12,541 bases of DNA from a virus, in UHGV virus genome UHGV-0189011; one strand, written 5' to 3'. This document shows positions 1 through 12,530 of the stretch, in pieces. A program made the position numbers and the translations under genes. The notes below the pieces were generated by a model that did not search any database, was not told the origin of the DNA, and saw only the letters and a list, made by a program, of their open reading frames with translations. Every line of letters starts with the position of its first letter. The stretch's first letter is position 1.

Positions 1-40
1 CGCAGGCATTGTTATCAACCCGGCAACAGGGAGGAGCCCT

Positions 41-277
41 ATGCCCGTTATTGCCATTATCGCCATTGTTGCCATCGTCATCATTCTGAACAAAACCGGG
101 GTGTCCGACAGTCTCGCGGCCCTGACCCTTGCCACTGTTGCCGCACTGCTGACGGGAGGTGGCGCAGCCGGTGCTGCCAGTGTCGCGCTGACACCGTTCG
201 TCGGCGTGCCGGTGGGTATTTTCGTCGGCATTTATGTCTTTGCCAAAGTGGTACGTCTGATTTCAGGGAAAAAATAA
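41..277 (+). CDS. small inner-membrane protein (78 aa, two predicted TM helices)
   Basis: ATG at 41 preceded by GGGAGGAG (28-35); hydrophobic segments IAIIAIVAIVIIL and VGVPVGIFVGIYVFA separated by a Gly/Ala-rich linker; stop TAA 275-277 overlaps the next ATG (TAATG). Resembles YkfL/YpjK-type small membrane proteins (recalled). Confidence 0.6.
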   Translation: MPVIAIIAIVAIVIILNKTGVSDSLAALTLATVAALLTGGGAAGAASVALTPFVGVPVGIFVGIYVFAKVVRLISGKK

Positions 278-720
278 TGAAATGTAAAACACTACCTCTG
301 CTGGCGATGGTTGCCACCACTCTGTTTCTGAGCGCCTGCGATGACAGGAGTGATGACCTGAAAGCTATCAGTAAATTTAAGGACCTCACGCCTCCGCGCT
401 TCAGCGATGTGGTCAGTCGGCAGGATGATGTCAGCGAAGAATGGTCACAGGTTGGCTTTTCATCAGGTCTCACCCTGCAGGTCTTACGTACCCGTGAGTC
501 GCCCGATGGCTGCGAGGGCGGTAGTTACTACTACCTCGTGGATATGCAGGAAAAAACCATCCAGCCGCTGATGAATGCGCTGTGTATTGCCGATAACATC
601 AAACTGGAATACCAGGAGGTGACGGACCCGTATACCAAAGAAAAATACTTTGAGTACGCCCATGACGGCAAACTGATGGGGCAGCTACTGATACCCTCGA
701 ACCCTGACAATCAGGAATAA
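277..720 (+). CDS. yafY: lipoprotein (YafY/YfjS-like), 147 aa
   Basis: N-terminal signal peptide with lipobox LSAC followed by DD; ATG at 277 coupled to the upstream stop; stop TAA 718-720. Symbol is by recalled synteny with E. coli CP4-6 and is tentative. Confidence 0.6.
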   Translation: MKCKTLPLLAMVATTLFLSACDDRSDDLKAISKFKDLTPPRFSDVVSRQDDVSEEWSQVGFSSGLTLQVLRTRESPDGCEGGSYYYLVDMQEKTIQPLMNALCIADNIKLEYQEVTDPYTKEKYFEYAHDGKLMGQLLIPSNPDNQE

Positions 721-742
721 AACAACGACAAAGGAGACAAGA

Positions 743-1210
743 ATGACAATACTTTCACTAAGTCGGTTTATGCTGGCGGGTGTACTGCTCGCGAGCTTTA
801 ATGCCTCTGCTATCCCGGGGTTCTGGCAGCAGGGTTACGGTCAGGGCAATACGGAATACAGCGTGACCGAAGCCAGCGGAAAGACGTTTACCATCAACTG
901 CACAGGGAACCCGGACCAGAATGGTTTCTATCAGCATTCAGTCTTTCTTACCCTTGCCGATGACAAGATGGTCAGTTCGCACGATGACGACACTACTATC
1001 ACCGTAGTGATGGATCACCAGCAGTACATTATTCCGTCCAGCCTGGGCTGGCGTAACGGCGATAACGCCTGGTTTGACTTCATCAGCAATATCTCTGAGG
1101 CCGGGCAGTTCGACGTCTACGTCAATGACCACAAAGCAGGGACCTTCACTGCGGACCGGAAGAACACTGAGAAAGTTCTGTCCACTCTCGGAGACTGCAG
1201 CAACGACTGA
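743..1210 (+). CDS. secreted/periplasmic protein with cleavable signal peptide (YkfB/YfjT-like), 155 aa
   Basis: ATG at 743 with AAGGAG SD (731-736); N-terminal hydrophobic signal [23 protein letters not shown]; stop TGA 1208-1210. Confidence 0.6.
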
Positions 1211-1236
1211 TAGTAGTATCTTCCCCAGCAAATCCA

Positions 1237-1271
1237 CCCCGACAGCTAGCAGGCTGCCGGGGTTTTCTTTT
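1237..1271 (+). terminator. putative rho-independent terminator between the secreted-protein gene and the DUF905 gene
   Basis: GC-rich hairpin ccccgacag/ctgccgggg (8 of 9 bp paired, 8-nt loop) at 1237-1262, immediately followed by the T-tract ttttctttt (1263-1271). Confidence 0.45.
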
Positions 1272-1286
1272 ATCAGGAGCCCGAAA

Positions 1287-1526
1287 ATGACCCAATCCGT
1301 GTTGCTGCCACCGGGGCCTTTCACCCGGAGACAAGCGCAAGCGGTCACTACCACGTACAGCAATATCACACTCGAAGACGACCAGGGCAGTCACTTCCGT
1401 CTGGTGGTTCGTGATACTGAAGGCCGGATGGTCTGGCGGGCATGGAACTTTGAGCCGGATGCCGGTGAAGGTCTTAACCGCTATATCCGCACCTCAGGCA
1501 TCCGTACAGACACGGCCACCCGCTGA
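1287..1526 (+). CDS. ykfF: DUF905 family protein (YkfF-like), 79 aa
   Basis: ATG at 1287 with AGGAG SD (1275-1279); product [20 protein letters not shown]... matches the recalled YkfF/DUF905 family. The longer ORF from 1074 is rejected because it overlaps the upstream gene and terminator. Confidence 0.7.
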
Positions 1527-1623
1527 TCGCGAAGCATTTACCCGCATTCACCTCCCCGAACACACTTTATATCCCCATACGCCAGCCATCGCCGCTGGCG
1601 TTTTTATTGACGGAGACATACCC

Positions 1624-2082
1624 ATGACAACACAGACGCAGCACGACCTCGCACCCGCTAACCAACCCGAATTTGAACTGACCGTCACGCCGGTCCCCGA
1701 TGAACAGCGTATCGATTTCTGGCCACAGTACTTTGGCGCTATCCCGCAGTGGCTACTCCTGGAGCCGCATATCTTCGCCTGGATGGATCGCTTCTGTGAG
1801 GGCTACAGCGGTGGTATCTGGTCGTTCTACACCCTCAGCAATGGCGGCGCATTTATGTCCCCCGAGCCTGACAACGATGAGACATGGCGTCTGTTTAACT
1901 GCCTGAACGGTAACGATGCCCAAATGAGTGCAGAAGCAGCAGGTATTGCTGTCTGCCTGATTGCGTATAGCCACCATGCCTGCCGTACAGAATGTGACGC
2001 GATGACCGCACACTATTACCGCCTGCGGGAGTATGCCATGCAACATCCAGAGGCTCACGCCATTCTGCGTATTATCGACTGA
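1624..2082 (+). CDS. yafX: antirestriction protein, KlcA/ArdB family (YafX/YfjX-like), 152 aa
   Basis: ATG at 1624 with GGAGA SD; product MTTQTQHDLAPANQPEFELTVTPVPDEQRIDFWPQYFG... is typical of the enterobacterial island antirestriction family; stop TGA 2080-2082. Confidence 0.75.
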   Translation: MTTQTQHDLAPANQPEFELTVTPVPDEQRIDFWPQYFGAIPQWLLLEPHIFAWMDRFCEGYSGGIWSFYTLSNGGAFMSPEPDNDETWRLFNCLNGNDAQMSAEAAGIAVCLIAYSHHACRTECDAMTAHYYRLREYAMQHPEAHAILRIID

Positions 2083-2097
2083 CCGAAGGAGCAACAG

Positions 2098-2574
2098 ATG
2101 AAACAGCTTTCCTTTTTACCCGGCGAGATGACGCCACAGGACCGGCGTCTCATTCAGCGGGCGCTCAGGGCTCTGGACCGCCACCTGCATGAGCCCGGCG
2201 TAGCCTTCACCTCTACCCACGCCGTACGTGAATGGCTGCGACTGCATATGGCCGCGCTTGAACGGGAAGAGTTCCGGGTGTTGTATCTGGACAACCAGAA
2301 TCAGTTGATTGCCCATGAAACGCTCTTCACCGGCACGATTAACCGCACCGAGGTGCATCCCCGGGAGGTGGTCAAACGTGCTCTGCACTTCAACGCGGCG
2401 GCGGTGATACTCGCGCATAACCATCCTTCCGGCGAGACGACACCTAGCCAGGCCGACAAAACCCTCACGCAGCGACTGGTTCAGGTGCTTCAGCTGGTGG
2501 ATATCCGTGTCCCTGACCATCTGATTGTCGGTGGCAGGCAAATCTATTCGTTCGCAGAACACGGTCTGCTTTGA
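2098..2574 (+). CDS. ykfG: RadC-like JAB/MPN domain protein (UPF0758; YkfG/YfjY/YeeS-like), 158 aa
   Basis: ATG at 2098 with GAAGGAG SD; JAMM-like motif HNHPSGETTPSQAD in the product; stop TGA 2572-2574. Confidence 0.8.
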   Translation: MKQLSFLPGEMTPQDRRLIQRALRALDRHLHEPGVAFTSTHAVREWLRLHMAALEREEFRVLYLDNQNQLIAHETLFTGTINRTEVHPREVVKRALHFNAAAVILAHNHPSGETTPSQADKTLTQRLVQVLQLVDIRVPDHLIVGGRQIYSFAEHGLL

Positions 2575-2582
2575 GGTATTAC

Positions 2583-2804
2583 ATGAAAATTATCAGTAAA
2601 CGCAGGGCAATGACGATATACCGCCAGCATCCTGAGTCCCGAATCTTTCGCTACTGCACCGGCAAATACCAGTGGCACGGTAGCGTCTGTCATTACACCG
2701 GCAGGGACGTTCCGGATATCGCCGGAGTCCTCGCGGTATACGCCGAACGCCGCCAGGACCGCAATGGGCCCTATACCTGCCTGATGAGCATCACCCTGAA
2801 CTGA
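2583..2804 (+). CDS. ykfH: DUF987 family protein (YkfH-like), 73 aa
   Basis: ATG at 2583 (the track ORF from 2571 begins with TTG); product MKIISKRRAMTIYRQHPESRIFRYCTGKYQWHG...; conserved position between the RadC-like gene and the antitoxin in CP4-type modules. Confidence 0.65.
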   Translation: MKIISKRRAMTIYRQHPESRIFRYCTGKYQWHGSVCHYTGRDVPDIAGVLAVYAERRQDRNGPYTCLMSITLN

Positions 2805-2822
2805 CAATAGTGGAGAACTGTA

Positions 2823-3502
<680 letters not shown>

Positions 3503-3567
3503 ACATTGCGTACAACCTTCCCGATTTACATTTCTGAACTTCCTCCCTTGTTTACCTATTGCGTAAT

Positions 3568-3604
3568 GCGCCTGCTACTACCCGGCAGGCGCGTTATCTT
3601 TTTA
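3568..3604 (+). terminator. putative rho-independent terminator downstream of the toxin gene
   Basis: Perfect 8-bp GC-rich inverted repeat gcgcctgc / gcaggcgc (3568-3575 and 3585-3592, 9-nt loop) followed by gttatcttttta. Confidence 0.5.
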
Positions 3605-3873
3605 CGGACAAACAATCATGCAACCAGAAGTTGAAGTATTAACCGATCATAATGAGCTAATTTGTTCGAGCTTTATTGAACACATTGCCAACACATTAAA
3701 TTTAGGAGTGGTGTACAACTAAACCTGCAGCCAAGGATGTATAGTGAGCGAAGCCCTATCAGGCCTTTTTGGTCAGTAGATAAGATTGATCTTCGTTGAT
3801 AGAATTTACTTACACCAGCTGTTACATTAAGATAATTTTTTGGTGGGAGAATGATAAGATCTTACGTAACAAT

Positions 3874-3929
3874 TTGATTTTAATGGTGCCGATAATAGGA
3901 GTCGAACCTACGACCTTCGCATTACGAAT
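3874..3929. repeat. attR-type direct repeat: copy of the 3' 46 nt of thrW (3884-3929) plus 10 bp of flank
   Basis: 3882-3929 is identical over 48 bp to 12453-12500; 3874-3929 matches 12445-12500 with one mismatch (offset 8571 bp). Identity stops exactly where the tRNA anticodon region begins (3930 c versus 12501 g). Confidence 0.9.
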
Positions 3930-4163
3930 CTGTAGCACCAATCATAACTATCTGTTTTAGCAAGCATTAACCGCATTCACTAAGCTATAGTTGATGGCAC
4001 AAACAGAAAGTTGATGCATGATGTTGTCATGCGTATGTCACAAATACGGCACAACAATCTTCAAATATGTAGACACACATCTACAGGAGAGCACAAAGCC
4101 TTGCAATACAGTGCAAAGCCTTGTGTGTCTCAGTTTTGTCCTGTGTGCCAGATATTGAATGGC

Positions 4164-4766
4164 CTACGCCTCCGGCAGTTCAGGCCAGATGACATCCGGC
4201 GCGGTGCTGGTATCTGTTACCGTCACCGCGTCAATGTAATCCAGCACGGCGTTAAGTCGGGTTGTTTCTGCCTGCGTCAGCTTCCGCCCGGCCTGTAATT
4301 TCAGTTGAATCAGACTAATGGAAGCCATTGCAGCATCAATCAGTGACTGGCGCTGTGCTTCTGCCGCGTCTACTGCGGCGCTATGCTGTGCCTCAGTATC
4401 GGTCACCCATTTCTCACCATCCCATTTATCGTATGGCGTTAATGGGGCGATAGTGGTTGTATTTTCAGGGTAATCACCCGGAGCGGTGATTTCTTTTGAT
4501 TCTCCTGTTTTGGTGCTATAGACCGTTTCACCGCGATGGTCTGGCACATATTCCCATGAGTTAAAATCTGCAGAACGGCAGATTGCATAACCAGCCTTAT
4601 GTGTGCCAGGGGCATCTAAACAGGAACATGCCGGAATGCCGATACCAACGGCAAGATATTCATTTGAAGTGGAAATATATTCCCGAGTTTCACCATCATA
4701 GCTATAGACGGTAATATTCCCCGCCTTCGTGGCAATAAGCTCGCTATTTAATACAGCGTTATCCAT
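4164..4766 (-). CDS. tail fiber assembly protein (Tfa; Caudovirales tail-assembly chaperone family), 200 aa
   Basis: Product has the Tfa family hallmarks (WEYVPDHRGETVYSTKTGE, EKWVTDTEAQ, VTDTSTAPDVIWPELPEA C-terminus), as in TfaE/TfaQ-type proteins; ATG at 4766 overlaps the fiber stop (TAATG); stop TAG 4164-4166. Confidence 0.8.
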   Translation of the reverse strand: MDNAVLNSELIATKAGNITVYSYDGETREYISTSNEYLAVGIGIPACSCLDAPGTHKAGYAICRSADFNSWEYVPDHRGETVYSTKTGESKEITAPGDYPENTTTIAPLTPYDKWDGEKWVTDTEAQHSAAVDAAEAQRQSLIDAAMASISLIQLKLQAGRKLTQAETTRLNAVLDYIDAVTVTDTSTAPDVIWPELPEA

Positions 4767-5500
4767 TATACAGCCCTCACGATAAAGTTAAATGCAATAT
4801 TTCGCGCACGTGTTTCCGTTGATGTTCTGGCAACACGTGATGCATCAAAATAATAATTCGCCTGTTTATATGTACCACCTGTCGCAATTGATGCGAGATT
4901 TGGTGTCAATGTTGAAGAGGTAAATGCGCCGACAGTATTATTATTTGGCCCCGTGGTCATATCCAAAAAGCTACCTGTAATATTTTGCAGCGTATCGCTC
5001 TGAGCACTCAATAACGCTCGCCCACTGTCCACTCCACGCCCATCATCCCAGCCACGAATAAACTCACCACGTAAATCAGGCAATTTATTTGTCGGGTAAG
5101 CCTTTGCCAGCTCCGGGTATTCTTCAGCAGAAAAAGCTGCACCATTGCATTTCAACCAGCCTGTCGGTGGTGTAGCTGAAGGCCACGGAACAGGCACACC
5201 AACAGGTAATGCAGAGCCTTCTCCCAAACCAAGGTTTGTGGTAATCGCTGTCGCCAGCTTTGCCACCAGTCCATCAACGTCACCATCATCGAGCGCGTCC
5301 AGTTCGGCGTTCGCGATAAACTGCCCCAGTACAGCCGCCATCGTCGACGGTTGGCGCAGCGCTTTACTGACCTGTGCGCTGGATGCTTTACCCGAGGAGA
5401 ATCCTTTCTTCAGTGCGGTTAGCGTCTCCCATTCCTCCTGCGAGGTAACATTTGCATTAGCATCTGTCGCAAACGCTTTAAAATCATTAGTTCCAGCCAT
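4766..5500 (-). CDS. short tail fiber protein with C-terminal phage tail-collar domain, 244 aa
   Basis: C-terminal motif WLKCNGAAFSAEEYPELAKAYP...LPDLRGEFIRGW is typical of the tail-collar domain; start chosen at ATG 5500 (GGGGGAG SD, TAATG overlap with the upstream stop) rather than the track start at 5518; immediately followed by the Tfa gene. Confidence 0.7.
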   Translation of the reverse strand: MAGTNDFKAFATDANANVTSQEEWETLTALKKGFSSGKASSAQVSKALRQPSTMAAVLGQFIANAELDALDDGDVDGLVAKLATAITTNLGLGEGSALPVGVPVPWPSATPPTGWLKCNGAAFSAEEYPELAKAYPTNKLPDLRGEFIRGWDDGRGVDSGRALLSAQSDTLQNITGSFLDMTTGPNNNTVGAFTSSTLTPNLASIATGGTYKQANYYFDASRVARTSTETRARNIAFNFIVRAV

Positions 5501-6180
5501 TAAAGTAATCTCCCCCATGCGCCGTCATCAAAACCGGCGATGTATTCGTTATCCATGTCAAATCCAAAGAATTTTGTTCCTTCGGACGGTGTTTCGACCG
5601 AGGGTGTTTCAACGCCGCCAGCCCATACACCAGCAGCTTTAACGGTGAGATAACCCTGTTTGATAGCGGCTATCAGTTCGAGTGACACATCAGAAATATC
5701 AGTCTCGGGAAAAACCCAGACCGATATCGTCATGTCCTGGTTATCGACGATCTGCATCTTCAGTCCAGAGCCTGCGGTAGCAGCGTCAAGGATGGGAGGC
5801 AGAGAGTCGTTCCGACCATCCCAGTTGTTGATAGCGATTTTCGCTTTCAGAATGATGCGGTACGTCTCATCACTCAGCGTCGTATAGCCAGAATCAGGAT
5901 CATATGGCCCTTGCCAGATGCCCTGGTCATATCCGAGCCCGTCAGTGTCCCAGCTGAAATAAACGCCGCTAATTGGCTGGCTGACTATACGACTACGCCC
6001 AATCCACAGGCCGAGGATATCGAGTTGCACGCCAACCGCCGTATCGATATCGAAGGCTGTTACAAGCCCTGACATAGTGCTGGACACATCAATCAGCGGG
6101 CGGGTGCTCAGATCTATATGGTCAAAAAAGAGTGGCTTGGTAGCGTGGTAGTTAGTGATCAGTTCGGTGTATTTGCTCAT
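5500..6180 (-). CDS. putative tail/baseplate structural protein, 226 aa
   Basis: Intact ORF coupled by ATGA overlap to the upstream gene; lies between a putative baseplate-like protein and the tail fiber; contains a [13 protein letters not shown] motif. Family not confidently recognised. Confidence 0.45.
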
Positions 6181-7277
6181 GAGGTCACCGTGATAGTGAT
6201 ATTCGCGGTGCTACAGGACGCCGAAGCATCATAGGCAATATCAATGTTTGATGCCGATACGCTGCCAGACGACTTACCGATCAGCAGGTCGGTAATATCG
6301 TAATAGCGGGCATTCCCGCCGCTCACAACGCCGAGGTTTGCCGGGGAATAAATACGGCTCAGCAGAACGTCGTCGCCAATTGTTAGGCCATTTATATAAT
6401 CGGCAACAGCCTGTTTAATCTGCTCGCCGATTTGAGAGGTATAGCCGGTAAAAACTTTCAGGGTAATGGCTACGAAAATTGGCACATCGGTAGAGCGCGA
6501 AAAACTGATGACGTGAGGATTACCATAAGTATCCGGCACTGTGACAGAAGTTGTCCCGTAGGTTGCCGTTCCCTGTCCTTTATTCCCCCTGATGGCCTGG
6601 GCAATTTCGGTAACATCCCCACCATCGACGATGGCGGAAATCGAGTGTGGCGGCAGCCCATTGCTGTCGGTTGCCCCCGTGTCGTTCTCATACAGTTTGT
6701 GACGTGTCACGCCAGCAATGTTAGCGATTGCACCGTCGACGCCTTCAAACGGTGTGACCGATGGTAGCGCGACGCTTTGCCCCTGCCGAATGCGCAGCTC
6801 TGCGTCGGTTTCAGCTGGTGAACCGACAGTAGCCGCAGCCGGGTTGGTTACCGACACCCAGCCGCGAGTCGGTGTGTTAATGGTGGTAATAGTCCCGGCC
6901 ATCGCCGCAACCGAACCGCTATTCGCACATGTGGCCGTAACCAGTACAGTACCGTCAACGCCGATCGCTACACTTGCGGGAAAATTCCAGATAATGCCGT
7001 TTTTATCCCGTGCGGAGCCATTCGTGATAGTTGTTCCCGCCGTACCGGTTAACAGAAGGTCAGCAGTAGAGTTTGTCGCTACTTTTCGCGTGATCCCGTT
7101 AATTTTCACATTGCTGCTATCTTCAACGCCAGAATACAGGCGAACACGCTCGCTTGTCGGGATCACGTTAGATGAGCCCAGAATCAGCAGCGCACCGAAG
7201 TTACGCCCGGTTGCCGCCGTCGCCGCCATAATCACATCAACGTTAACAACGTTGGAAACAGGTAAGCCCTGTGCCAT
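6177..7277 (-). CDS. putative tail/baseplate structural protein (possibly baseplate J-like), 366 aa
   Basis: ATG at 7277 with GGAGA SD; Thr/Gly/Ala/Val-rich beta-type composition; the [11 protein letters not shown] motif is reminiscent of baseplate J / gp6-like proteins (recalled, uncertain); positioned two genes upstream of the fiber. Confidence 0.45.
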
Positions 7278-7280
7278 AGA

Positions 7281-7844
7281 TTAATCTCCAAAAAATGATA
7301 CTGGTACATCCACCAGCAATTTGATGCCGTATTCGCGCACAACCTTACGGCGCAGTCGCACCGTCATGTCGTAACGGCGAACCCATTGCTGGTTGATAAG
7401 TTCGGGGAAAGGAGTCAGACCGGTATAGTCGCCAAGGGACAAACCAAGAGCGTTAAGCTCAGCATTATTTTGCGGGACAGATATGCCATCACGAAAACGG
7501 GACGCATAAGACATACCAGCCGGGCCATAGAACGACGCCATGCACTCGAACGTTTCATGCCTCCAGAGCTGAGCGCCCTCTTCAGTCTGCCAGGTGAATG
7601 CAGGGTTGTTATCAATGAGCAACCCGGTAACGCCAAACGCGCACCAGTTCGTTTCAACGGGTGGCAGTGGCGGCTGGTCTTTCTGCCAGCGCGGGCGAAC
7701 CATCCCAGCAGGCAAGCCGGAAACGTTGCGCATCCACTGACTTAACAGCCTGTCTAGCGCTTCGTCATAATCCGGATCGCCGCTGGTGGGTGTCAGCCAG
7801 CCGCGCTCTGTGCTGGTGTTATTGCTCAACGGGAGTTCCCCCAT
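7281..7844 (-). CDS. phage structural protein of unknown function (start uncertain)
   Basis: ORF is open from a TTG at 7907; the first ATG is at 7844, with no convincing SD; stop TAA 7281-7283 lies 4 nt upstream of the next start. Confidence 0.4.
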   Translation of the reverse strand: MGELPLSNNTSTERGWLTPTSGDPDYDEALDRLLSQWMRNVSGLPAGMVRPRWQKDQPPLPPVETNWCAFGVTGLLIDNNPAFTWQTEEGAQLWRHETFECMASFYGPAGMSYASRFRDGISVPQNNAELNALGLSLGDYTGLTPFPELINQQWVRRYDMTVRLRRKVVREYGIKLLVDVPVSFFGD

Positions 7845-8208
7845 CAAACGGCAGTAATTCACAATGCGCCTGGACAAAGCCAGCACCGTAAGCCGTGTAC
7901 GGGTCAACGAATGTCACACGATAATCACGGTTCTGGTACGTCACGATATCGGCGTCACGGCCAGTCTGCCCCTGCGTCAGCCGCTCAGTTGTCACGATGA
8001 GAATCGCGCCACTGATAACTTGCCCGGACTGCATACGGCGGTTCTCCAGGGAGCGGTCAACGGTAACAACTCCGGCAAACTGCGTTTTTACTTCGCTGTC
8101 ACTGCCGATCCCGTCATCGTCCACCGTTTGCACGCGACGCGTTACCCACAGGTTGAAGTCGCAAAAATCGGGGTCAAAAAGTACGTCCGTCACATCAAGA
8201 TTCGGCAT
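7819..8208 (-). CDS. putative head-tail joining / head-closure type protein, 129 aa
   Basis: ATG at 8208 with GAGGG SD; 14-nt overlap with the upstream gene; size and position after the connector genes. Family not confidently recognised. Confidence 0.4.
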   Translation of the reverse strand: MPNLDVTDVLFDPDFCDFNLWVTRRVQTVDDDGIGSDSEVKTQFAGVVTVDRSLENRRMQSGQVISGAILIVTTERLTQGQTGRDADIVTYQNRDYRVTFVDPYTAYGAGFVQAHCELLPFDGGTPVEQ

Positions 8209-8782
8209 CTTTATCCCTCACAACGTGGGTAATGGCTCTGCGGTACTGTCCGGTATCAATCAACGGCCTTACATTCTCATTGCTTATCAATTGACCAGAA
8301 TCTGGGTTGATAGCATTAAGCTTTCCATCTGCTGATCTGCGTGCTAACTCAGCTTTAGCCCCTTTGCGCCCTCGACGTGCTCGGGCCTCTACGGTGCTAT
8401 CAGCAAGCGGTGTAAAGCCGGTAATGGTCATGTAACGCCTGACGCCATTCGCGGCCAGCGTTCCGGCGCGGTTAAGCGCTCTTTCCGCACCCGCCGCATT
8501 TCCATCAAGCGCAGCCTGCGCCGCTGCTTTGAGCTGCGGCACCGTCTGTTCCTCTACGGATTTAACGCCGGGGATCAGGTGCGGGCGTGGGGGTATGTTT
8601 TGCGCTGGTGAGCCGTATTCGTTGACGTAACCGATCCCGGCATTACCAAACGGAACATCCTCACGCTCGCTGTCTTCTTCCGGGATGCCCACCAGCACAT
8701 CCTTTTTGGTTAGCGACCGGAGCGCATCCAGAATGGCCTGAGCGTTATCAACCCTCGTTGTTACACCACTTTTGAAACTCAT
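8195..8782 (-). CDS. putative head-tail connector component (HK97 gp10-like?), 195 aa
   Basis: ATG at 8782 overlaps the upstream stop (ATGA); [16 protein letters not shown] resembles the E-F/Y-G ... RPF signature recalled for the HK97 gp10 family (tentative). Confidence 0.45.
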
Positions 8783-9198
8783 AGCTGGCGACCGCCCGCA
8801 CCGAACATCGTGATCAGCTGATAAAATTCAGCGCCATATCGGGTGTTATTCCAGAAGCCTGCGTCAGGGTTTAGCGTCGCGCTGGTGTCATAGCTGACGC
8901 TTACCTTGTCAACGGACTTGGAGGACTGAACACCATTGGTTGAGCCACCCGGGCCGCCGACGAGCATTGCCCGGCTATCTGCCGCCCAGAGCGTCATGTA
9001 GTGAGCCACGAACAACTCGACAAAGTACGGAAACAACTCTTTGCCGGTGACGTTTTCGCTCAGCAGCACATCAGCCAGATTCAGACGAAACTGGATTTGT
9101 GCTTCGGGATATTTGGCAGGGTCAGCAAACTGTGGAAAGTCGCGCCGAAAATCACTTACTGTTGGCAGGCTTTGATTCTTTGGCATCTTTTGCCCCAT
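8779..9198 (-). CDS. putative head-tail adaptor protein, 139 aa
   Basis: Intact ORF overlapping both neighbours; position immediately after the capsid genes; alternative ATG start at 9186. Confidence 0.4.
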
Positions 9199-9520
9199 TA
9201 CCGCCAGTCTGGGCGGCAGAAATCTGCGCTTGCAGGCTGTCGTTCTGCTCTTGCATCTTGAGCAGCGCTTCTTTCAGATCGGCAATCAGCTGATCTTTAT
9301 CGACAATCTGCGCTTGCAGGCTGTCGATAATGGGTTGCAGATCATCGGTGTCGCTAATCACGCTTTCGGAAAGCTCAGAGTGCGCCTGGGTGAACCAGTG
9401 CGACGCGACCTCTTCCGGTACGTTATGCCGTCCCCGGCCAAACTCCTGTTTTGACTGATCGCCCAGCGTCAGCGTAAACGGGGTGTGAACATGGATGGTA
9501 ACCAGCTTTTCTTTCGCCAT
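9152..9520 (-). CDS. small phage structural protein with coiled-coil C-terminal half, 122 aa
   Basis: ATG at 9520 with AAGGA SD; heptad-like region [35 protein letters not shown]; first gene after the capsid-gene hairpin. Confidence 0.45.
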
Positions 9521-9535
9521 TTTCAGTTTCCTTCT

Positions 9536-9551
9536 GGCCCCTTTCGGGGCC
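9536..9551 (-). promoter_or_regulatory. stable GC stem-loop with GNRA (GAAA) tetraloop immediately downstream of the putative major capsid gene
   Basis: Minus-strand RNA reads GGCCCC-GAAA-GGGGCC, 11 nt after the capsid stop (9562-9564); no U-tract follows, so more likely an mRNA-stabilising or attenuating hairpin than a full terminator. Confidence 0.4.
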
Positions 9552-9561
9552 GTTCTGGTTA

Positions 9562-10503
9562 TCAGATACCGTCCACGTAGGACAGGGTTTCTTTGTACAC
9601 TGGCTCAACCGCACCGAGCTTGCCGTAGTAGGTCGCAATCTGGTACAGACCGCGATACTGGATAGGAACGCTCTGCAACGGCACCAGCGGATAGCGCACG
9701 TATTTCTTGTCGTTGGTGTAGGCGACCATACGGTCTTTACCGCCAACGCCGCGCCCTTTCAGCCATTTGACCGCTTTGATTTCCAGCGGAACGCCGTTCT
9801 GGTGGAAAGCGATAGTGTTCACGGCCAGATAGGTCAGTAGTGACTGGTTACCCGCTTCGGAAACCTTACGGCTCGCCAGCAGTGAATACTGCTCTGGCGG
9901 AATGCGCAGATCAGAAGGCACAACGGAATAACCGGATGCTGCCCAGGCATTCGACAGAATACTGTTCACGCTATCGAGGATTTCGTCGTTGGTGGAGTTC
10001 GCCCAGGTCTTCGGCGCATTGTTCAGCGTCACACCCACAAGGTTTGCCAGACCTTTCAGGCCGAGCGCATCATCGCCGATGTAAACCTGCTCGTCGTTGT
10101 CCATCTGCCATTTGAGCTGCATCCCGTCGTACTTCTGGGTATCAATCGGGCGGCCTACCTGCTGAGCTGCTGCCAGCTCTACAACGGTCCAGCCCAGTTC
10201 CATGCCCCAGAGGTTCAACGGATTGCCGTCTTTGCCGATATCAACGTTCACGCCAGCAATAGCGGTGGAGTCTTTACCTACCCAGTTTTTACCATTCGGA
10301 TTTGCACCAGTACCCGCAGCGGCGAAGCTGGTATTCGTCCAGCTGGAAATGTCATCTGCGATAGACACGTCTTCACGCAGTTGAATATCTCGGGTCCAGG
10401 TGTACCCCACCAGAGGCAGGTTCAGCGTCTGGTCGAGTCGCTCCAGCTCCCCGATGAGAAAGGCACCGGAGCTATCTACGGTTGCCTGATCAAAAGTAAT
10501 CAT
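9562..10503 (-). CDS. putative major capsid protein, 313 aa
   Basis: ATG at 10503 with AAGGA SD; third gene of the structural operon after the acidic scaffold-like and small capsid-associated genes; followed by a strong stem-loop; size and composition fit a small major capsid protein. Fold not verified. Confidence 0.5.
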   Translation of the reverse strand: MITFDQATVDSSGAFLIGELERLDQTLNLPLVGYTWTRDIQLREDVSIADDISSWTNTSFAAAGTGANPNGKNWVGKDSTAIAGVNVDIGKDGNPLNLWGMELGWTVVELAAAQQVGRPIDTQKYDGMQLKWQMDNDEQVYIGDDALGLKGLANLVGVTLNNAPKTWANSTNDEILDSVNSILSNAWAASGYSVVPSDLRIPPEQYSLLASRKVSEAGNQSLLTYLAVNTIAFHQNGVPLEIKAVKWLKGRGVGGKDRMVAYTNDKKYVRYPLVPLQSVPIQYRGLYQIATYYGKLGAVEPVYKETLSYVDGI

Positions 10504-10514
10504 TTGTCTGTTCC

Positions 10515-11018
10515 TTAAATCTTCCAGGAGATTTCTGCATTACCGTTAGCGTCACCGGCACCTGTGAATTCGGCGTTGGTCAGCGCCACGTTTTTGCCAC
10601 TGACGGACGTGGACATGAAGCCGCCCAGCGGCACTTTGATGGATTCATCAGTGGAGACGACAACGTATACCGGGTCGCCTTTTTTGATGGTGCTGGCATC
10701 AAAATCAGAACCGAGATTAACGGTCATGTAGCCACGCTTCATGGCGTCACCCGGGAAGTTCTTATCCGTCCCCACCTGGCGAACCATGTCTGGCTGCGAT
10801 GTGGTCGGATACGGACGAACGTAGATCCCCTTCACCTTGTCGGCGGTGTCACCGTCCGCCAGCGGCACGAAAAAGCCGTCAGCGTCATATTTGCCAGCCA
10901 GACCATAGGCAGCGAAGGCGTTAGCGGATTTAAGGATCACCGTCTCGACGGTTAAATCCTGCGGGCGAGAGATAGCCCCGGCAATGCCAACAGGCATCCG
11001 GTTCAAATATGCAGTCAT
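10515..11018 (-). CDS. putative capsid-associated (decoration/cement-type) structural protein, 167 aa
   Basis: ATG at 11018 with AAGGA SD; located between the scaffold-like and capsid genes; beta-rich, Gly/Asp-rich sequence. Confidence 0.45.
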   Translation of the reverse strand: MTAYLNRMPVGIAGAISRPQDLTVETVILKSANAFAAYGLAGKYDADGFFVPLADGDTADKVKGIYVRPYPTTSQPDMVRQVGTDKNFPGDAMKRGYMTVNLGSDFDASTIKKGDPVYVVVSTDESIKVPLGGFMSTSVSGKNVALTNAEFTGAGDANGNAEISWKI

Positions 11019-11022
11019 TGGA

Positions 11023-11511
11023 TTATCCTTTGCGGTTAGACCAGAAGTCGGCGTTTTGTTTGTTCAGGGAAGCGATGCTGGTCATGCCCATATTTGGACG
11101 TTGTGCATCGCCCGTGGTGCTGCGGGTGTTTCGCCCTTTGGCAATCTCAGACACGGCGTTAAACGCCATATCGACCGATTGCTTGGGCAATTTGCGGATA
11201 TCTGCATCACCGACAACCTGGCGAACCAGTGTTTTGTCAGCGGCGGACAGCACATCACGTTTGAACGCGGTCGGTTTCACCTTACGGCTCAGATCGATAC
11301 CCGGAACGATAACTTCGGCACGATAAGCAGCGTCACCGGTAATCGTGGTTTCCTCTTCGTCGTCCTCACCGTCGCCGGTAGGGTCTTTGTTATCTTTGCC
11401 GTCAGGCTTATCGTCGTTATCGCCCGTTGCAGTACCTTCCAGCTTAGCCAGCAGGGCTTTGAGCAAGGTTTTGATATCGTCCTCGCCGTCGCCGGTTGGC
11501 TCTCCGCCCAT
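11023..11511 (-). CDS. acidic scaffolding-like protein with duplicated PTGDGEDD motif (possibly 5'-truncated at the deletion junction)
   Basis: The ORF is open up to 11733, but the part above about 11607 is antisense to the integrase remnant, so the first plausible ATG is 11511 (weak SD); very acidic, low-complexity N-terminal half and alpha-helical C-terminal half; stop TAA 11023-11025. Confidence 0.4.
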   Translation of the reverse strand: MGGEPTGDGEDDIKTLLKALLAKLEGTATGDNDDKPDGKDNKDPTGDGEDDEEETTITGDAAYRAEVIVPGIDLSRKVKPTAFKRDVLSAADKTLVRQVVGDADIRKLPKQSVDMAFNAVSEIAKGRNTRSTTGDAQRPNMGMTSIASLNKQNADFWSNRKG

Positions 11512-11606
11512 TTCCGGCTTTTTGTCCGGCAATGGTTGTTGCGGTGAAAGATTAATGTTGAGGTTAACGCCGCTCGGCAGATCCCCTTCATCGCCCGTTA
11601 GACGGG

Positions 11607-12440
11607 ATGGAAAACCGCCGCCATCGCCTGAACTGGGAGATGAGCCGGGACAGGTGTTTGCGGCTTGGCAAGCCAGTGCCGGAGTATAAACCAAAGCTGG
11701 CAAGCAAAGGAACGAAGACGCGGCATCTGGCAATACTTCGCGCTATTCTCAATATGGCTGTTGAATGGGGATGGCTTGACAGGACGCCCAAAATATCAAC
11801 ACCACGCGTTAAGAATGGACGAATCAGATGGCTTACAGAGGAGGAATCGAAGCGCCTGTTTGCAGAAATTGCTCCTCATTTCTTCCCTGTGGTCATGTTT
11901 GCAATCACGACAGGCCTTCGCCGCTCCAACGTTACAGACCTTGAGTGGTCACAGGTCGATCTGGATAAGAAAATGGCATGGATGCACCCTGATGAAACAA
12001 AAGCTGGCAATGCGATCGGAGTTCCTCTTAACGAAACCGCATGCCAGATATTAAGAAAACAGCAGGGGCTCCATAAGAGATGGGTATTTGTCCACACCAA
12101 ACCTGCCTACCGAAGCGACGGAACAAAAACAGCTGCGGTAAGGAAGATGAGAACCGATAGCAACAAGGCATGGAAGGGAGCGTTAAAGCGGGCAGGCATT
12201 AGCAACTTCCGCTTCCATGACCTGAGGCATACCTGGGCAAGTTGGCTGGTTCAGTCCGGAGTCTCTCTTCTTGCACTTAAAGAGATGGGAGGATGGGAAA
12301 CTCTCGAAATGGTTCAAAGATACGCTCACCTTTCAGCCGGGCATCTCACCGAGCACGCGAGCAAAATCGATGCGATTATAAGTCGCAATGGCACAAATAC
12401 GGCACAAGAGGAGAACGTAGTTTACTTAAATGCGAGGTAA
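11607..12440 (+). CDS. int: tyrosine integrase, P22 Int-like, C-terminal catalytic part only (N-terminal arm-binding region absent; probable pseudogene remnant)
   Basis: Product has the tyrosine-recombinase catalytic signature (TGLRRSN ... HDLRHTWASWLVQSG ... YAHL); in-frame stop TAA at 11565-11567 leaves only 13 codons upstream of the first ATG; phage integrases of this type are about 390 aa, versus 277 aa here; ends 14 nt from the thrW 3' end. Confidence 0.8.
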   Translation: MENRRHRLNWEMSRDRCLRLGKPVPEYKPKLASKGTKTRHLAILRAILNMAVEWGWLDRTPKISTPRVKNGRIRWLTEEESKRLFAEIAPHFFPVVMFAITTGLRRSNVTDLEWSQVDLDKKMAWMHPDETKAGNAIGVPLNETACQILRKQQGLHKRWVFVHTKPAYRSDGTKTAAVRKMRTDSNKAWKGALKRAGISNFRFHDLRHTWASWLVQSGVSLLALKEMGGWETLEMVQRYAHLSAGHLTEHASKIDAIISRNGTNTAQEENVVYLNAR

Positions 12441-12444
12441 CTTA

Positions 12445-12500
12445 TTGATTTAAATGGTGCCGATAATAGGAGTCGAACCTACGACCTTCGCATTACGAAT
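12445..12500. repeat. attL-type direct repeat (3' part of intact thrW plus 10-bp flank), partner of 3874-3929
   Basis: Exact 48-bp identity between 12453-12500 and 3882-3929. Confidence 0.9.
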
Positions 12501-12530
12501 GCGCTGCTCTACCAACTGAGCTATATCGGC
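12455..12530 (-). tRNA. thrW: tRNA-Thr (anticodon CGU)
   Basis: The reverse complement reads GCCGATATAGCTCAGTTGGTAGAGCAGCGCATTCGTAATGCGAAGGTCGTAGGTTCGACTCCTATTATCGGCACCA: 7-bp acceptor stem GCCGATA/TATCGGC, anticodon loop with CGT, T-loop GGTTCGACTCC, encoded CCA. Confidence 0.95.

Follow-up and report, generated by a model that had tools for sequence, protein, structure and literature searches.

The classical cryptic prophages of E. coli K-12 (CP4-6, e14, Rac, Qin, and DLP12) are deletion remnants located at tRNA genes or other att sites. For the locus studied here, the closest known system is Salmonella phage SEN34 (Brunovirus SEN34), which has a long contractile tail as seen by electron microscopy (PMC5261728); nearer still are Citrobacter phage Omnitron and prophages of E. 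coli M172-1, ET846, and AW1.7. The window, that is, the entire stretch of 12,541 nucleotides analysed, contains a head-neck module collinear with that of SEN34-like (Brunovirus-type) myoviruses and with the same gene order (DUF2213, cement, DUF2184 capsid, STY1053, DUF4054, Neck1, adaptor, neck terminator), and it also has the distal tail module of baseplate J, DUF2612, fibre, and Tfa in common with the SEN34-type relatives. Window positions 7120-11600 form one collinear block with 94-96% DNA identity to intact prophages of E. coli M172-1 and ET846 and to phage Omnitron and 85% to SEN34, and from ~5220-5450 to 7119 the window runs collinear with the baseplate-J/DUF2612/fibre region of the same E. 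coli/Citrobacter relatives at 90-93% identity and with that of SEN34 at 74%. Compared to these relatives, the window lacks the terminase, the portal, the minor head protein, DUF2213 codons 1-215, the stretch from sheath codon 54 to baseplate-J codon 86, and the early and lysis region. Its int/att module is of the SfX/mEp043 type and located at thrW, whereas the SEN34-type relatives use a site next to yciI. We conclude that window positions 3930-12454 very probably represent a cryptic remnant of a SEN34-like contractile-tailed prophage at E. coli thrW that arose through two illegitimate deletions.

The remnant measures 8.5 kb and is flanked by 46-bp direct repeats of the thrW 3' end (3884-3929 and 12455-12500), where the direct repeat D1 extends over 3866-3929 and 12437-12500. 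Flanked by copies of the tRNA 3' end and with an integrase fragment adjoining thrW, the locus has the layout of a prophage in a tRNA gene. Phage mEp043 has an annotated "prophage attachment site (type CP4-6)" to which the attR sequence corresponds, and window positions 3866-4280 resemble the Tfa-attP arrangement of this phage (83% identity). An Rfam scan of the window gave no RNA match besides thrW, and the chromosomal surroundings of thrW in contig L005 are frsA-crl-phoE-proBA. The remnant and a CP4-6-like island stand in tandem at thrW, a further example of the repeated, tandem use of this site by mobile elements.

Table 1. Coordinates of the genes, gene fragments, and sites of the remnant, in window positions
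Feature	Position	Strand	Remarks
attR	3884..3929	none	46-bp duplicate of thrW 3' end; distal boundary of remnant; adjoins CP4-6-like island
Tfa, tail fibre assembly protein	4164..4766	-	200 aa, full length; Pfam Caudo_TAP E=2e-32
Tail fibre	4766..5518	-	244-250 aa; Pfam Collar; appears complete
Orphan crossover site, Gin/Pin-type fibre-inversion system	5219..5234	none	single copy in window
DUF2612 baseplate/wedge-type structural protein	5500..6180	-	226 aa, full length; Pfam DUF2612 E=2e-46
Baseplate J/gp47, 3' part	6177..7119	-	residues 87-399 of 399 = residues 54-366 of chimeric ORF
Tail sheath (DUF3383), first 53 codons	7120..7277	-	fused in frame to baseplate J
Neck/tail terminator	7281..7862	-	full length; Pfam Phage_tail_terminator_9 E=2e-34
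Head-tail adaptor / head protein	7819..8208	-	129 aa, full length; phrog_939 E=2e-43
Neck1 / tail-completion-type connector	8195..8782	-	195 aa, full length; phrog_222 E=2e-48
DUF4054 (E217 gp27-like) head-completion protein	8779..9186	-	135 aa, full length; Pfam DUF4054 E=2e-27
STY1053-family phage protein	9152..9520	-	122 aa; phrog_2619; RefSeq name
Major capsid protein (DUF2184 / PF09950)	9562..10503	-	313 aa, full length; Pfam E=1e-81
Capsid cement / minor capsid protein (E217 gp24 / XM1 gp53-like)	10515..11018	-	167 aa, full length; Pfam PF23982 and PF22758
DUF2213 head gene, 3' fragment	11023..11600	-	residues 216-410 of 410; BLASTP 98% to L002
Deletion-1 junction	11596..11600	none	truncated integrase joined to DUF2213 codon 216
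Tyrosine integrase, SfX/mEp043 type, 5'-truncated	11607..12440	+	277 aa of ~386, catalytic domain only
thrW tRNA-Thr(CGT)	12455..12530	-	ARAGORN; Rfam tRNA 71.8 bits; 3' 46 nt (12455-12500) = attL

Gene calls confirmed the twelve co-oriented ORFs described for positions 4164-11511 in the earlier note, all on the minus strand, and none of the 12 translations contains an internal stop. The ORF coordinates likewise bear out the reported overlaps (4 nt at 8779-8782 and 6177-6180, 1 nt at 5500 and 4766, and 14 nt at 8195-8208), and GAGG/GGAG/AGGA-type motifs precede most starts, in line with the claimed Shine-Dalgarno sites. According to the Pfam and PHROG assignments, the content was also correctly read as capsid, connector, baseplate, fibre, and Tfa genes left by deletion, and no packaging (terminase), portal, tube, or tape-measure gene was found in the window with these profiles. 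The impression that the genes look intact holds for the ten that are full length, but two of the twelve ORFs come from larger proteins, namely the chimera at 6177-7277 and the C-terminal fragment at 11023-11511.

For the distal tail proteins, identities are 94% over 200 aa between Tfa and its Omnitron homologue and, for the DUF2612 protein over 226 aa, 95-98% to the intact E. coli/Citrobacter relatives and 82% to SEN34. The E. coli and Citrobacter homologues of the neck terminator, the DUF4054 protein, and the cement protein are 94-95%, 97-100%, and 98% identical, and those of SEN34 77%, 96%, and 83%, respectively. The 129-aa adaptor, annotated as head-tail adaptor in SEN34 and E. coli ET846, is 97-98% identical to its relatives, and the Neck1 connector 99% to that of the relative L002; PDB sequence searches with the 129-aa and the 195-aa connector protein gave no match, and both were assigned by PHROGs. 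The major capsid protein (97-99.7% identical to relatives) matches the PDB major capsid chains 8hdt and 7kmx, and the STY1053-family protein is 92-93% identical with a 7-codon in-frame length difference to the 129-aa homologues. The divergence from the intact phages is phage history and not evolution since deletion.

As judged from the protein alignments, the 366-aa ORF at 6177-7277, called "baseplate J", is a chimera of two genes. In BLASTP, its N-terminus is 81% identical to residues 1-53 of the DUF3383 protein of L002, which is assigned to the PHROG "tail sheath" (E=9e-129), and its J part is 97% identical over 313 aa to residues 87-399 of the L002 baseplate J. Sheath codon 53 is joined in frame to baseplate-J codon 87 at 7119/7120, the DNA homology of the baseplate-J side to the relatives ends at 7119, and the junction has 0 bp of microhomology. 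The two breakpoint positions lie 8,194-8,513 bp apart in L002, Omnitron (L010), and L011 (~8.2-8.5 kb lost), and the segment missing here encodes the DUF3383 sheath, DUF3277, which we infer from gene order to occupy the tube position, a chaperone, the tape measure, baseplate proteins, the hub, a V spike, and a wedge protein in these relatives. Within the window, the SEN34-like contractile-tail genes between the neck terminator and baseplate J are absent except for sheath codons 1-53; the earlier statement that there is no sheath candidate is thus right for a full sheath gene but overlooks the 53 codons at 7120-7277. Together with the synteny with intact relatives, which carry tube and tape-measure genes at this position, the absence of sheath, tube, and tape measure indicates a second, internal deletion, and the window holds a remnant rather than a complete member of this phage group. 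Both findings that the earlier note had named as speaking against its reading were thus made, namely ORFs that are pieces of larger proteins and a second deletion revealed by intact homologous phages.

The same region speaks to the proposal of a podovirus-type short-tail module that naturally has no sheath, tube, or tape measure. The window does have no tube or tape-measure ORF, but a natural short tail would not account for the remaining sheath codons in the chimeric ORF, and all collinear relatives encode a sheath, a tube-position gene, and a tape measure between these genes. In addition, the annotations of the sheath-encoding relatives treat the families of baseplate J and DUF2612 as structural or baseplate-wedge proteins, and SEN34 itself is a myovirus. 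We therefore regard the short-tail reading as refuted for practical purposes.

At the other end of the cassette, the head module stops at 11600 within DUF2213 and adjoins the integrase, and the packaging and portal genes (TerS, TerL, and the DUF1073 portal) are absent upstream of the head genes. The head-side homology reaches 11600 and the integrase-side homology begins at 11596; the CGTTA at 11596-11600 is exact in the DUF2213 parent and matches at 4/5 positions in the integrase parent (2-5 bp microhomology). The ORF of the DUF2213 fragment can be called as 11023-11511 or, from a TTG start, as 11023-11733, where the apparent 5' extension is antisense integrase DNA; its PHROG match spans only profile positions 244-416 of 417. 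The integrase DNA is 98.5% identical to the mEp043 integrase, with homology only from 11596 on, and the encoded fragment has the Pfam domain Phage_integrase at residues 75-244. Because a parent phage combining this head module with an SfX/mEp043-type int-att module was not found, the size of this first deletion (~23-25 kb) is only an estimate from relatives.

In the tail fibre, the N-terminal part is constant, and the C-terminal part, which carries the collar domain, is variable; residues 1-100 are identical to the Omnitron fibre, and the C-terminal part matches the alternative, inverted cassette of Omnitron at 96% identity. L003 encodes a "phage tail protein" of similar length (251 aa), which aligns only to the C-terminal part (residues 95-249, 60% identical). 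In Omnitron, 15-bp inverted repeats (807-821 and 2670-2684) flank the inverted fibre/Tfa segment, which adjoins a serine-recombinase ORF. Unlike Omnitron, the window encodes no fibre invertase and has one crossover site but no second, and thus contains no Gin/Pin/Cin-type invertible segment. A third deletion that removed the invertase and the alternative cassette was considered, and natural mosaicism would explain this end equally well.

The remnant was found on contigs from five metagenome samples (L005-L009) that are 100% identical to the window. Metagenome and short-read assemblies are the source of all copies found to date, and the junctions could in principle be artefacts, with two parts of an intact prophage wrongly linked in one contig. 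Contigs that were assembled independently, from different samples and with different pipelines (ENA, Logan), agree to the base at both junctions or at 7119/7120 alone, and the element has proper att repeats and a normal chromosomal context, which makes an assembly artefact exceedingly improbable.

The earlier note had further suggested that the cassette is kept under selection or forms a domesticated particle. On a reading of this kind, the intact fibre and Tfa or the head and neck proteins would be produced and serve a co-resident SEN34-like phage, through complementation or a swap of host range, or they would serve the host. The stop-free, full-length state of ten genes with intact coupling, the fibre-Tfa pair, which makes up one full alternative cassette of a host-range system based on inversion, and the occurrence of the same remnant in at least five metagenome samples would fit this suggestion. 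Yet the copies, being identical, offer no divergence in which selection could show, and among 5,426 complete E. coli genomes neither junction occurs. Deletion 1 also took the region upstream of the small terminase gene, the site of the late promoter and of a Q-type antiterminator in relatives. A promoter/terminator scan found no clear promoter upstream of the cassette and no excess over shuffled sequence (14 promoter-like sites vs. 8.4 ± 3.1 expected). Moreover, the end points cut genes at random positions, one of them without microhomology, as is typical of accidental decay. We thus see no support for a selected cassette and consider it improbable. Similarly slim are the chances that the remnant is not inert, its fibre/Tfa and possibly capsid/neck genes being transcribed, for example by read-through from thrW, and exploited by superinfecting SEN34-like phages via complementation or recombination; if true, such use would change phage host range or rescue defects, favouring the carrier lineage or its phages. 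Read-through transcription of the structural genes from thrW, which has the same direction, may occur. None of the ten genes left has been inactivated by mutation, a picture that selection would produce as well.

The twice-deleted prophage very probably originated from a ~40-kb lambdoid temperate myovirus that integrated into E. coli thrW beside an older CP4-6-like island and whose virion genes resembled those of SEN34, Omnitron, and related E. coli prophages. Two non-homologous deletions then took about three quarters of the genome. Deletion 1, from within the integrase to DUF2213 codon 216, removed excision, regulation, replication, lysis, and late-gene control functions as well as the terminase, portal, and minor head protein, and deletion 2 the sheath, tube, tail chaperone, tape measure, hub, spike, and wedge genes, with the reading frame of the 366-aa chimera preserved by chance. 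The phage-style overlaps and ribosome-binding sites of the ten full-length genes would then persist because the deletions are recent and not because of joint function. Since portal, terminase, intact DUF2213 (whose product we assume to be a scaffold or protease), sheath, tube, tape measure, and hub are missing, no particle could be built, and an element that lacks both the integrase N-terminus and an excisionase should be unable to excise. A function of the remnant appears unlikely.

The locus is an ordinary decaying prophage rather than a specialised short-tail module or a domesticated one, and its importance beyond correct annotation is small. It illustrates how two accidental deletions can leave what looks like a neat "tail-less" cassette in which the genes are perfectly coupled. 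One of the two deletions created the in-frame sheath-baseplate J chimera, for which the label given by gene callers and Pfam is plainly "Baseplate J". At NCBI, the chimeric protein is listed as "MAG TPA: Baseplate J like protein [Caudoviricetes sp.]" from a viral metagenome-assembled genome, and in its 90% cluster 10 of the 15 members listed have the normal length of 399 aa, compared to 366 aa here, the other listed short members being partial or unnamed. Virome catalogues should therefore treat the 366-aa protein with caution, as a deletion artefact of a chromosomal remnant.

Like capsid-forming PICIs, tailocins, and gene transfer agents, the remnant is a partial virion gene set in a chromosome. 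However, capsid-forming PICIs and gene transfer agents keep terminase, portal, and protease, which are deleted here, and a PICI or satellite was rejected given the lack of a terminase, portal, protease/scaffold, and replication module and the truncation of integrase and DUF2213. Tailocins keep the sheath, tube, tape measure, and hub, whereas here two genes are cut mid-frame and this complete set was lost at 7119/7120, so a tailocin or domesticated contractile particle was rejected as well. The cryptic prophages of K-12 provide the better comparison: the remnant resembles them in being defective, non-excisable, and att-bounded at a tRNA gene, and it keeps a tail-fibre/Tfa pair like e14 and Rac, but it differs in its SEN34-type myovirus origin, its apparently much younger age (no point-mutation decay), and its uninterrupted capsid-neck block.

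Among complete relatives, the window's head region (7120-11600) forms a single collinear block by megablast, with 96% identity to a prophage of Escherichia coli M172-1, 95% to one of E. coli ET846, 94% to Citrobacter phage Omnitron, and 85% to Salmonella phage SEN34. The segment from ~5220-5450 to 7119 aligns at 90-93% identity (SEN34: 74%) with these relatives' baseplate-J/DUF2612/fibre region. Their shared gene order begins with TerS, TerL, portal (DUF1073), and minor head protein, followed by DUF2213 (410 aa), cement, capsid, STY1053, DUF4054, Neck1, adaptor, and neck terminator; sheath (DUF3383), DUF3277, chaperone, and tape measure come next, then baseplate proteins, hub, spike (V), and wedge, and finally baseplate J (399 aa), DUF2612, fibre, and Tfa. 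A Q antiterminator and lysis genes lie upstream of terS. The DUF3383 protein of the M172-1 prophage is assigned to a PHROG "tail sheath" (E=9e-129), and electron microscopy of SEN34, whose early genes are lambda-like, revealed an icosahedral head and a long contractile tail (PMC5261728). Compared with this order, the window very probably holds a cryptic prophage remnant that would have arisen by two illegitimate deletions.

The ORF listing of the window and gene calls made independently on identical metagenome contigs gave the same twelve minus-strand ORFs at 4164-11511. As the earlier note had described from sequence inspection, these are tightly coupled, neighbouring ORFs sharing 4 nt at 8779-8782 and 6177-6180, 14 nt at 8195-8208, and a single nucleotide at 5500 and at 4766; all 12 translations are free of internal stop codons, and GAGG/GGAG/AGGA-type motifs precede most starts. 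Its description of the gene content, including the capsid gene, was also accurate (see table). The view that the genes are intact holds for ten of them, which have the length of their homologues and encode proteins 88-100% identical to their closest relatives, but not for the 6177-7277 and 11023-11511 ORFs.

Coordinates and assignments of annotated features in the window
Feature	Position	Strand	Basis or remark
CP4-6-like island: YpjK-like ORF, YfjS/YafY lipoprotein, YkfB, DUF905/antirestriction protein, RadC-JAB protein, DUF987	1-3865		
CP4-6-like island: type IV toxin-antitoxin pair CbeA/CbtA (yafW/ykfI)	1-3865		
Tfa	4164-4766	-	Pfam, PHROGs
Collar-domain fibre	4766-5518	-	Pfam, PHROGs
DUF2612 protein	5500-6180	-	Pfam, PHROGs
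Baseplate_J	6177-7277	-	Pfam, PHROGs
Neck terminator	7281-7862	-	Pfam, PHROGs
Head/adaptor protein, phrog_939	7819-8208	-	PHROGs
Neck1/tail completion, phrog_222	8195-8782	-	PHROGs
DUF4054 protein	8779-9186	-	Pfam, PHROGs
STY1053-type protein	9152-9520	-	Pfam, PHROGs
Major capsid protein, PF09950	9562-10503	-	Pfam; PDB capsid chains 8hdt and 7kmx also match
Cement protein	10515-11018	-	Pfam, PHROGs
DUF2213-type fragment, C-terminal	11023-11511	-	Pfam, PHROGs
Tyrosine integrase ORF, catalytic domain only	11607-12440	+	Between head genes and thrW
thrW, tRNA-Thr(CGT)	12455-12530	-	

Both exceptions carry only parts of larger proteins. The 366-aa product of 6177-7277 is a chimera, in which residues 1-53 correspond to sheath residues 1-53 (81% identity) and residues 54-366 to baseplate J residues 87-399 (97%). 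DNA homology of the left part stops at 7119 and that of the right part starts at 7120, breakpoints that lie 8,513, 8,392, and 8,194 bp apart in the M172-1 and ET846 prophages and Omnitron, respectively. At this joint there is no microhomology between the parental sequences, and the fusion is in frame, as one chance fusion in three would be. A second deletion, inside the cassette, thus produced the architecture that had appeared unusual, as the relatives carry sheath and tape measure genes between neck terminator and baseplate J; the earlier note had itself named this outcome as one that would refute its reading. The alternative of a podovirus-type short-tail module, proposed when no sheath or tape measure candidate had been seen, is contradicted by the sheath fragment and the synteny with intact myoviruses and has next to no probability. 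The 53 leftover sheath codons (7120-7277) show 81% protein identity to the relatives vs. 95-99% for the flanking genes, which could reflect an ancestral mosaic boundary or relaxed constraint after the fusion.

At the other junction, the 11023-11733 ORF covers the 410-aa DUF2213 protein at residues 216-410 only (98% identity) and matches phrog_1961 only at profile positions 244-416 of 417. Head-side homology stops at 11600 and integrase homology begins at 11596; the shared junction pentamer, CGTTA, agrees with the integrase parent in 4/5 positions, giving a microhomology of 2-5 bp. With this deletion the region preceding terS was lost as well; the total loss is estimated at ~23-25 kb from relatives of ~40-42 kb, the exact parent not having been found.

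Further features were observed within the cassette. The STY1053-family gene contains a perfect 22-bp direct repeat (9221-9242 / 9305-9326, 84 bp spacing) and encodes 122 aa vs. 129 in its E. coli and Citrobacter relatives, seven codons fewer. A GC-rich hairpin, GGCCCCGAAAGGGGCC (9535-9552, minus strand), lies immediately 3' of the major capsid gene, in the gap separating its stop codon from the following start. The coding strand has no T-run after the hairpin, which could therefore stabilise or attenuate the transcript, like stems often found behind capsid genes. The fibre gene harbours an orphan crossover site of a Gin/Pin-type invertible tail-fibre segment, TTCTCCCAAACCAAGG, at 5219-5234. 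In Omnitron, with counterpart sites at 807-821 and 2670-2684, the window's fibre C-terminus and Tfa instead form the alternative cassette, in opposite orientation beside a serine invertase. Since the window lacks both an invertase and a second site, its fibre is frozen in one state.

For queries spanning each junction, hits to the two halves came from 44 and 182, respectively, of 5,426 complete E. coli genomes, but none of the 5,426 has both sides of either junction at one place. The exact chimeric protein is present on 16 contigs in the ENA and Logan assemblies of metagenomes and read sets; the five contigs fetched match the window with 100% identity over lengths of 1.6-12.5 kb. The remnant thus does exist, but it is rare; that assembly had created the junctions is extremely improbable given identical contigs obtained independently. 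In the 90% cluster of the chimera, 10 of the 15 members listed have 399 aa. The NCBI entry of the chimera, DAQ52944.1 ("MAG TPA: Baseplate J like protein [Caudoviricetes sp.]"), means that a source with this chromosomal remnant was catalogued as a viral metagenome-assembled genome.

Assembly of a particle from the remnant should be impossible, because portal, terminase, the N-terminal half of DUF2213, sheath, tape measure, hub, and spike are gone, as is the DUF3277 gene at the tube position. The genes defining a satellite, capsid-forming PICI, tailocin, or gene transfer agent are those deleted, and these candidates were rejected. Retention of the cassette by selection, or reuse of its parts, as the earlier note had considered, appears very unlikely; the tight coupling and stop-free ORFs are very probably inherited from a recently active phage, and the copies permit no test of selection since all are identical. 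A promoter scan found 14 promoter-like sites vs. 8.4 ± 3.1 expected from shuffles, an excess that is not significant. thrW is oriented like the structural genes, and transcription running on from it might conceivably reach the cassette.

The preferred reading, a prophage remnant, also fits its chromosomal setting. The 3' 46 nt of thrW are duplicated at 3884-3929, a site annotated as a CP4-6-type attachment site in phage mEp043. The integrase is 98.5% identical to the SfX-type, 386-aa mEp043 integrase, from position 11596 onward only. Excision is not expected, as the integrase lacks ~109 N-terminal residues and no excisionase is present. A CP4-6-like island lies left of 3866, and on a metagenome contig of identical sequence the surroundings continue into frsA-crl-phoE-proB-proA-thrW of the E. 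coli chromosome. The repeat, the integrase ORF, and this context identify 3930-12454 as an element of 8.5 kb that is integrated at thrW and stands in tandem with an older island. On the plus strand, the AT-rich spacer between the gene for the CbtA toxin and attR holds a hairpin that resembles a strong terminator, with 14 pairs and then a T-run (3563-3597).

In E. coli K-12, the CP4-6 island presumably adjoins thrW directly; in the window, the remnant is wedged between the two, so this tRNA gene has gathered two elements in tandem. In E. coli 1008S13 (9858-14500), a different remnant comes after the same partial-thrW att site behind ykfI; it consists of O-antigen modification genes of gtrA/gtrB type, IS fragments, and then a Mu-like tail module, hence elements have used this site, and decayed there, repeatedly and independently. 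The remnant in the window is of an ordinary, already-known kind, a prophage in decay at a tRNA gene that is a hotspot of integration.
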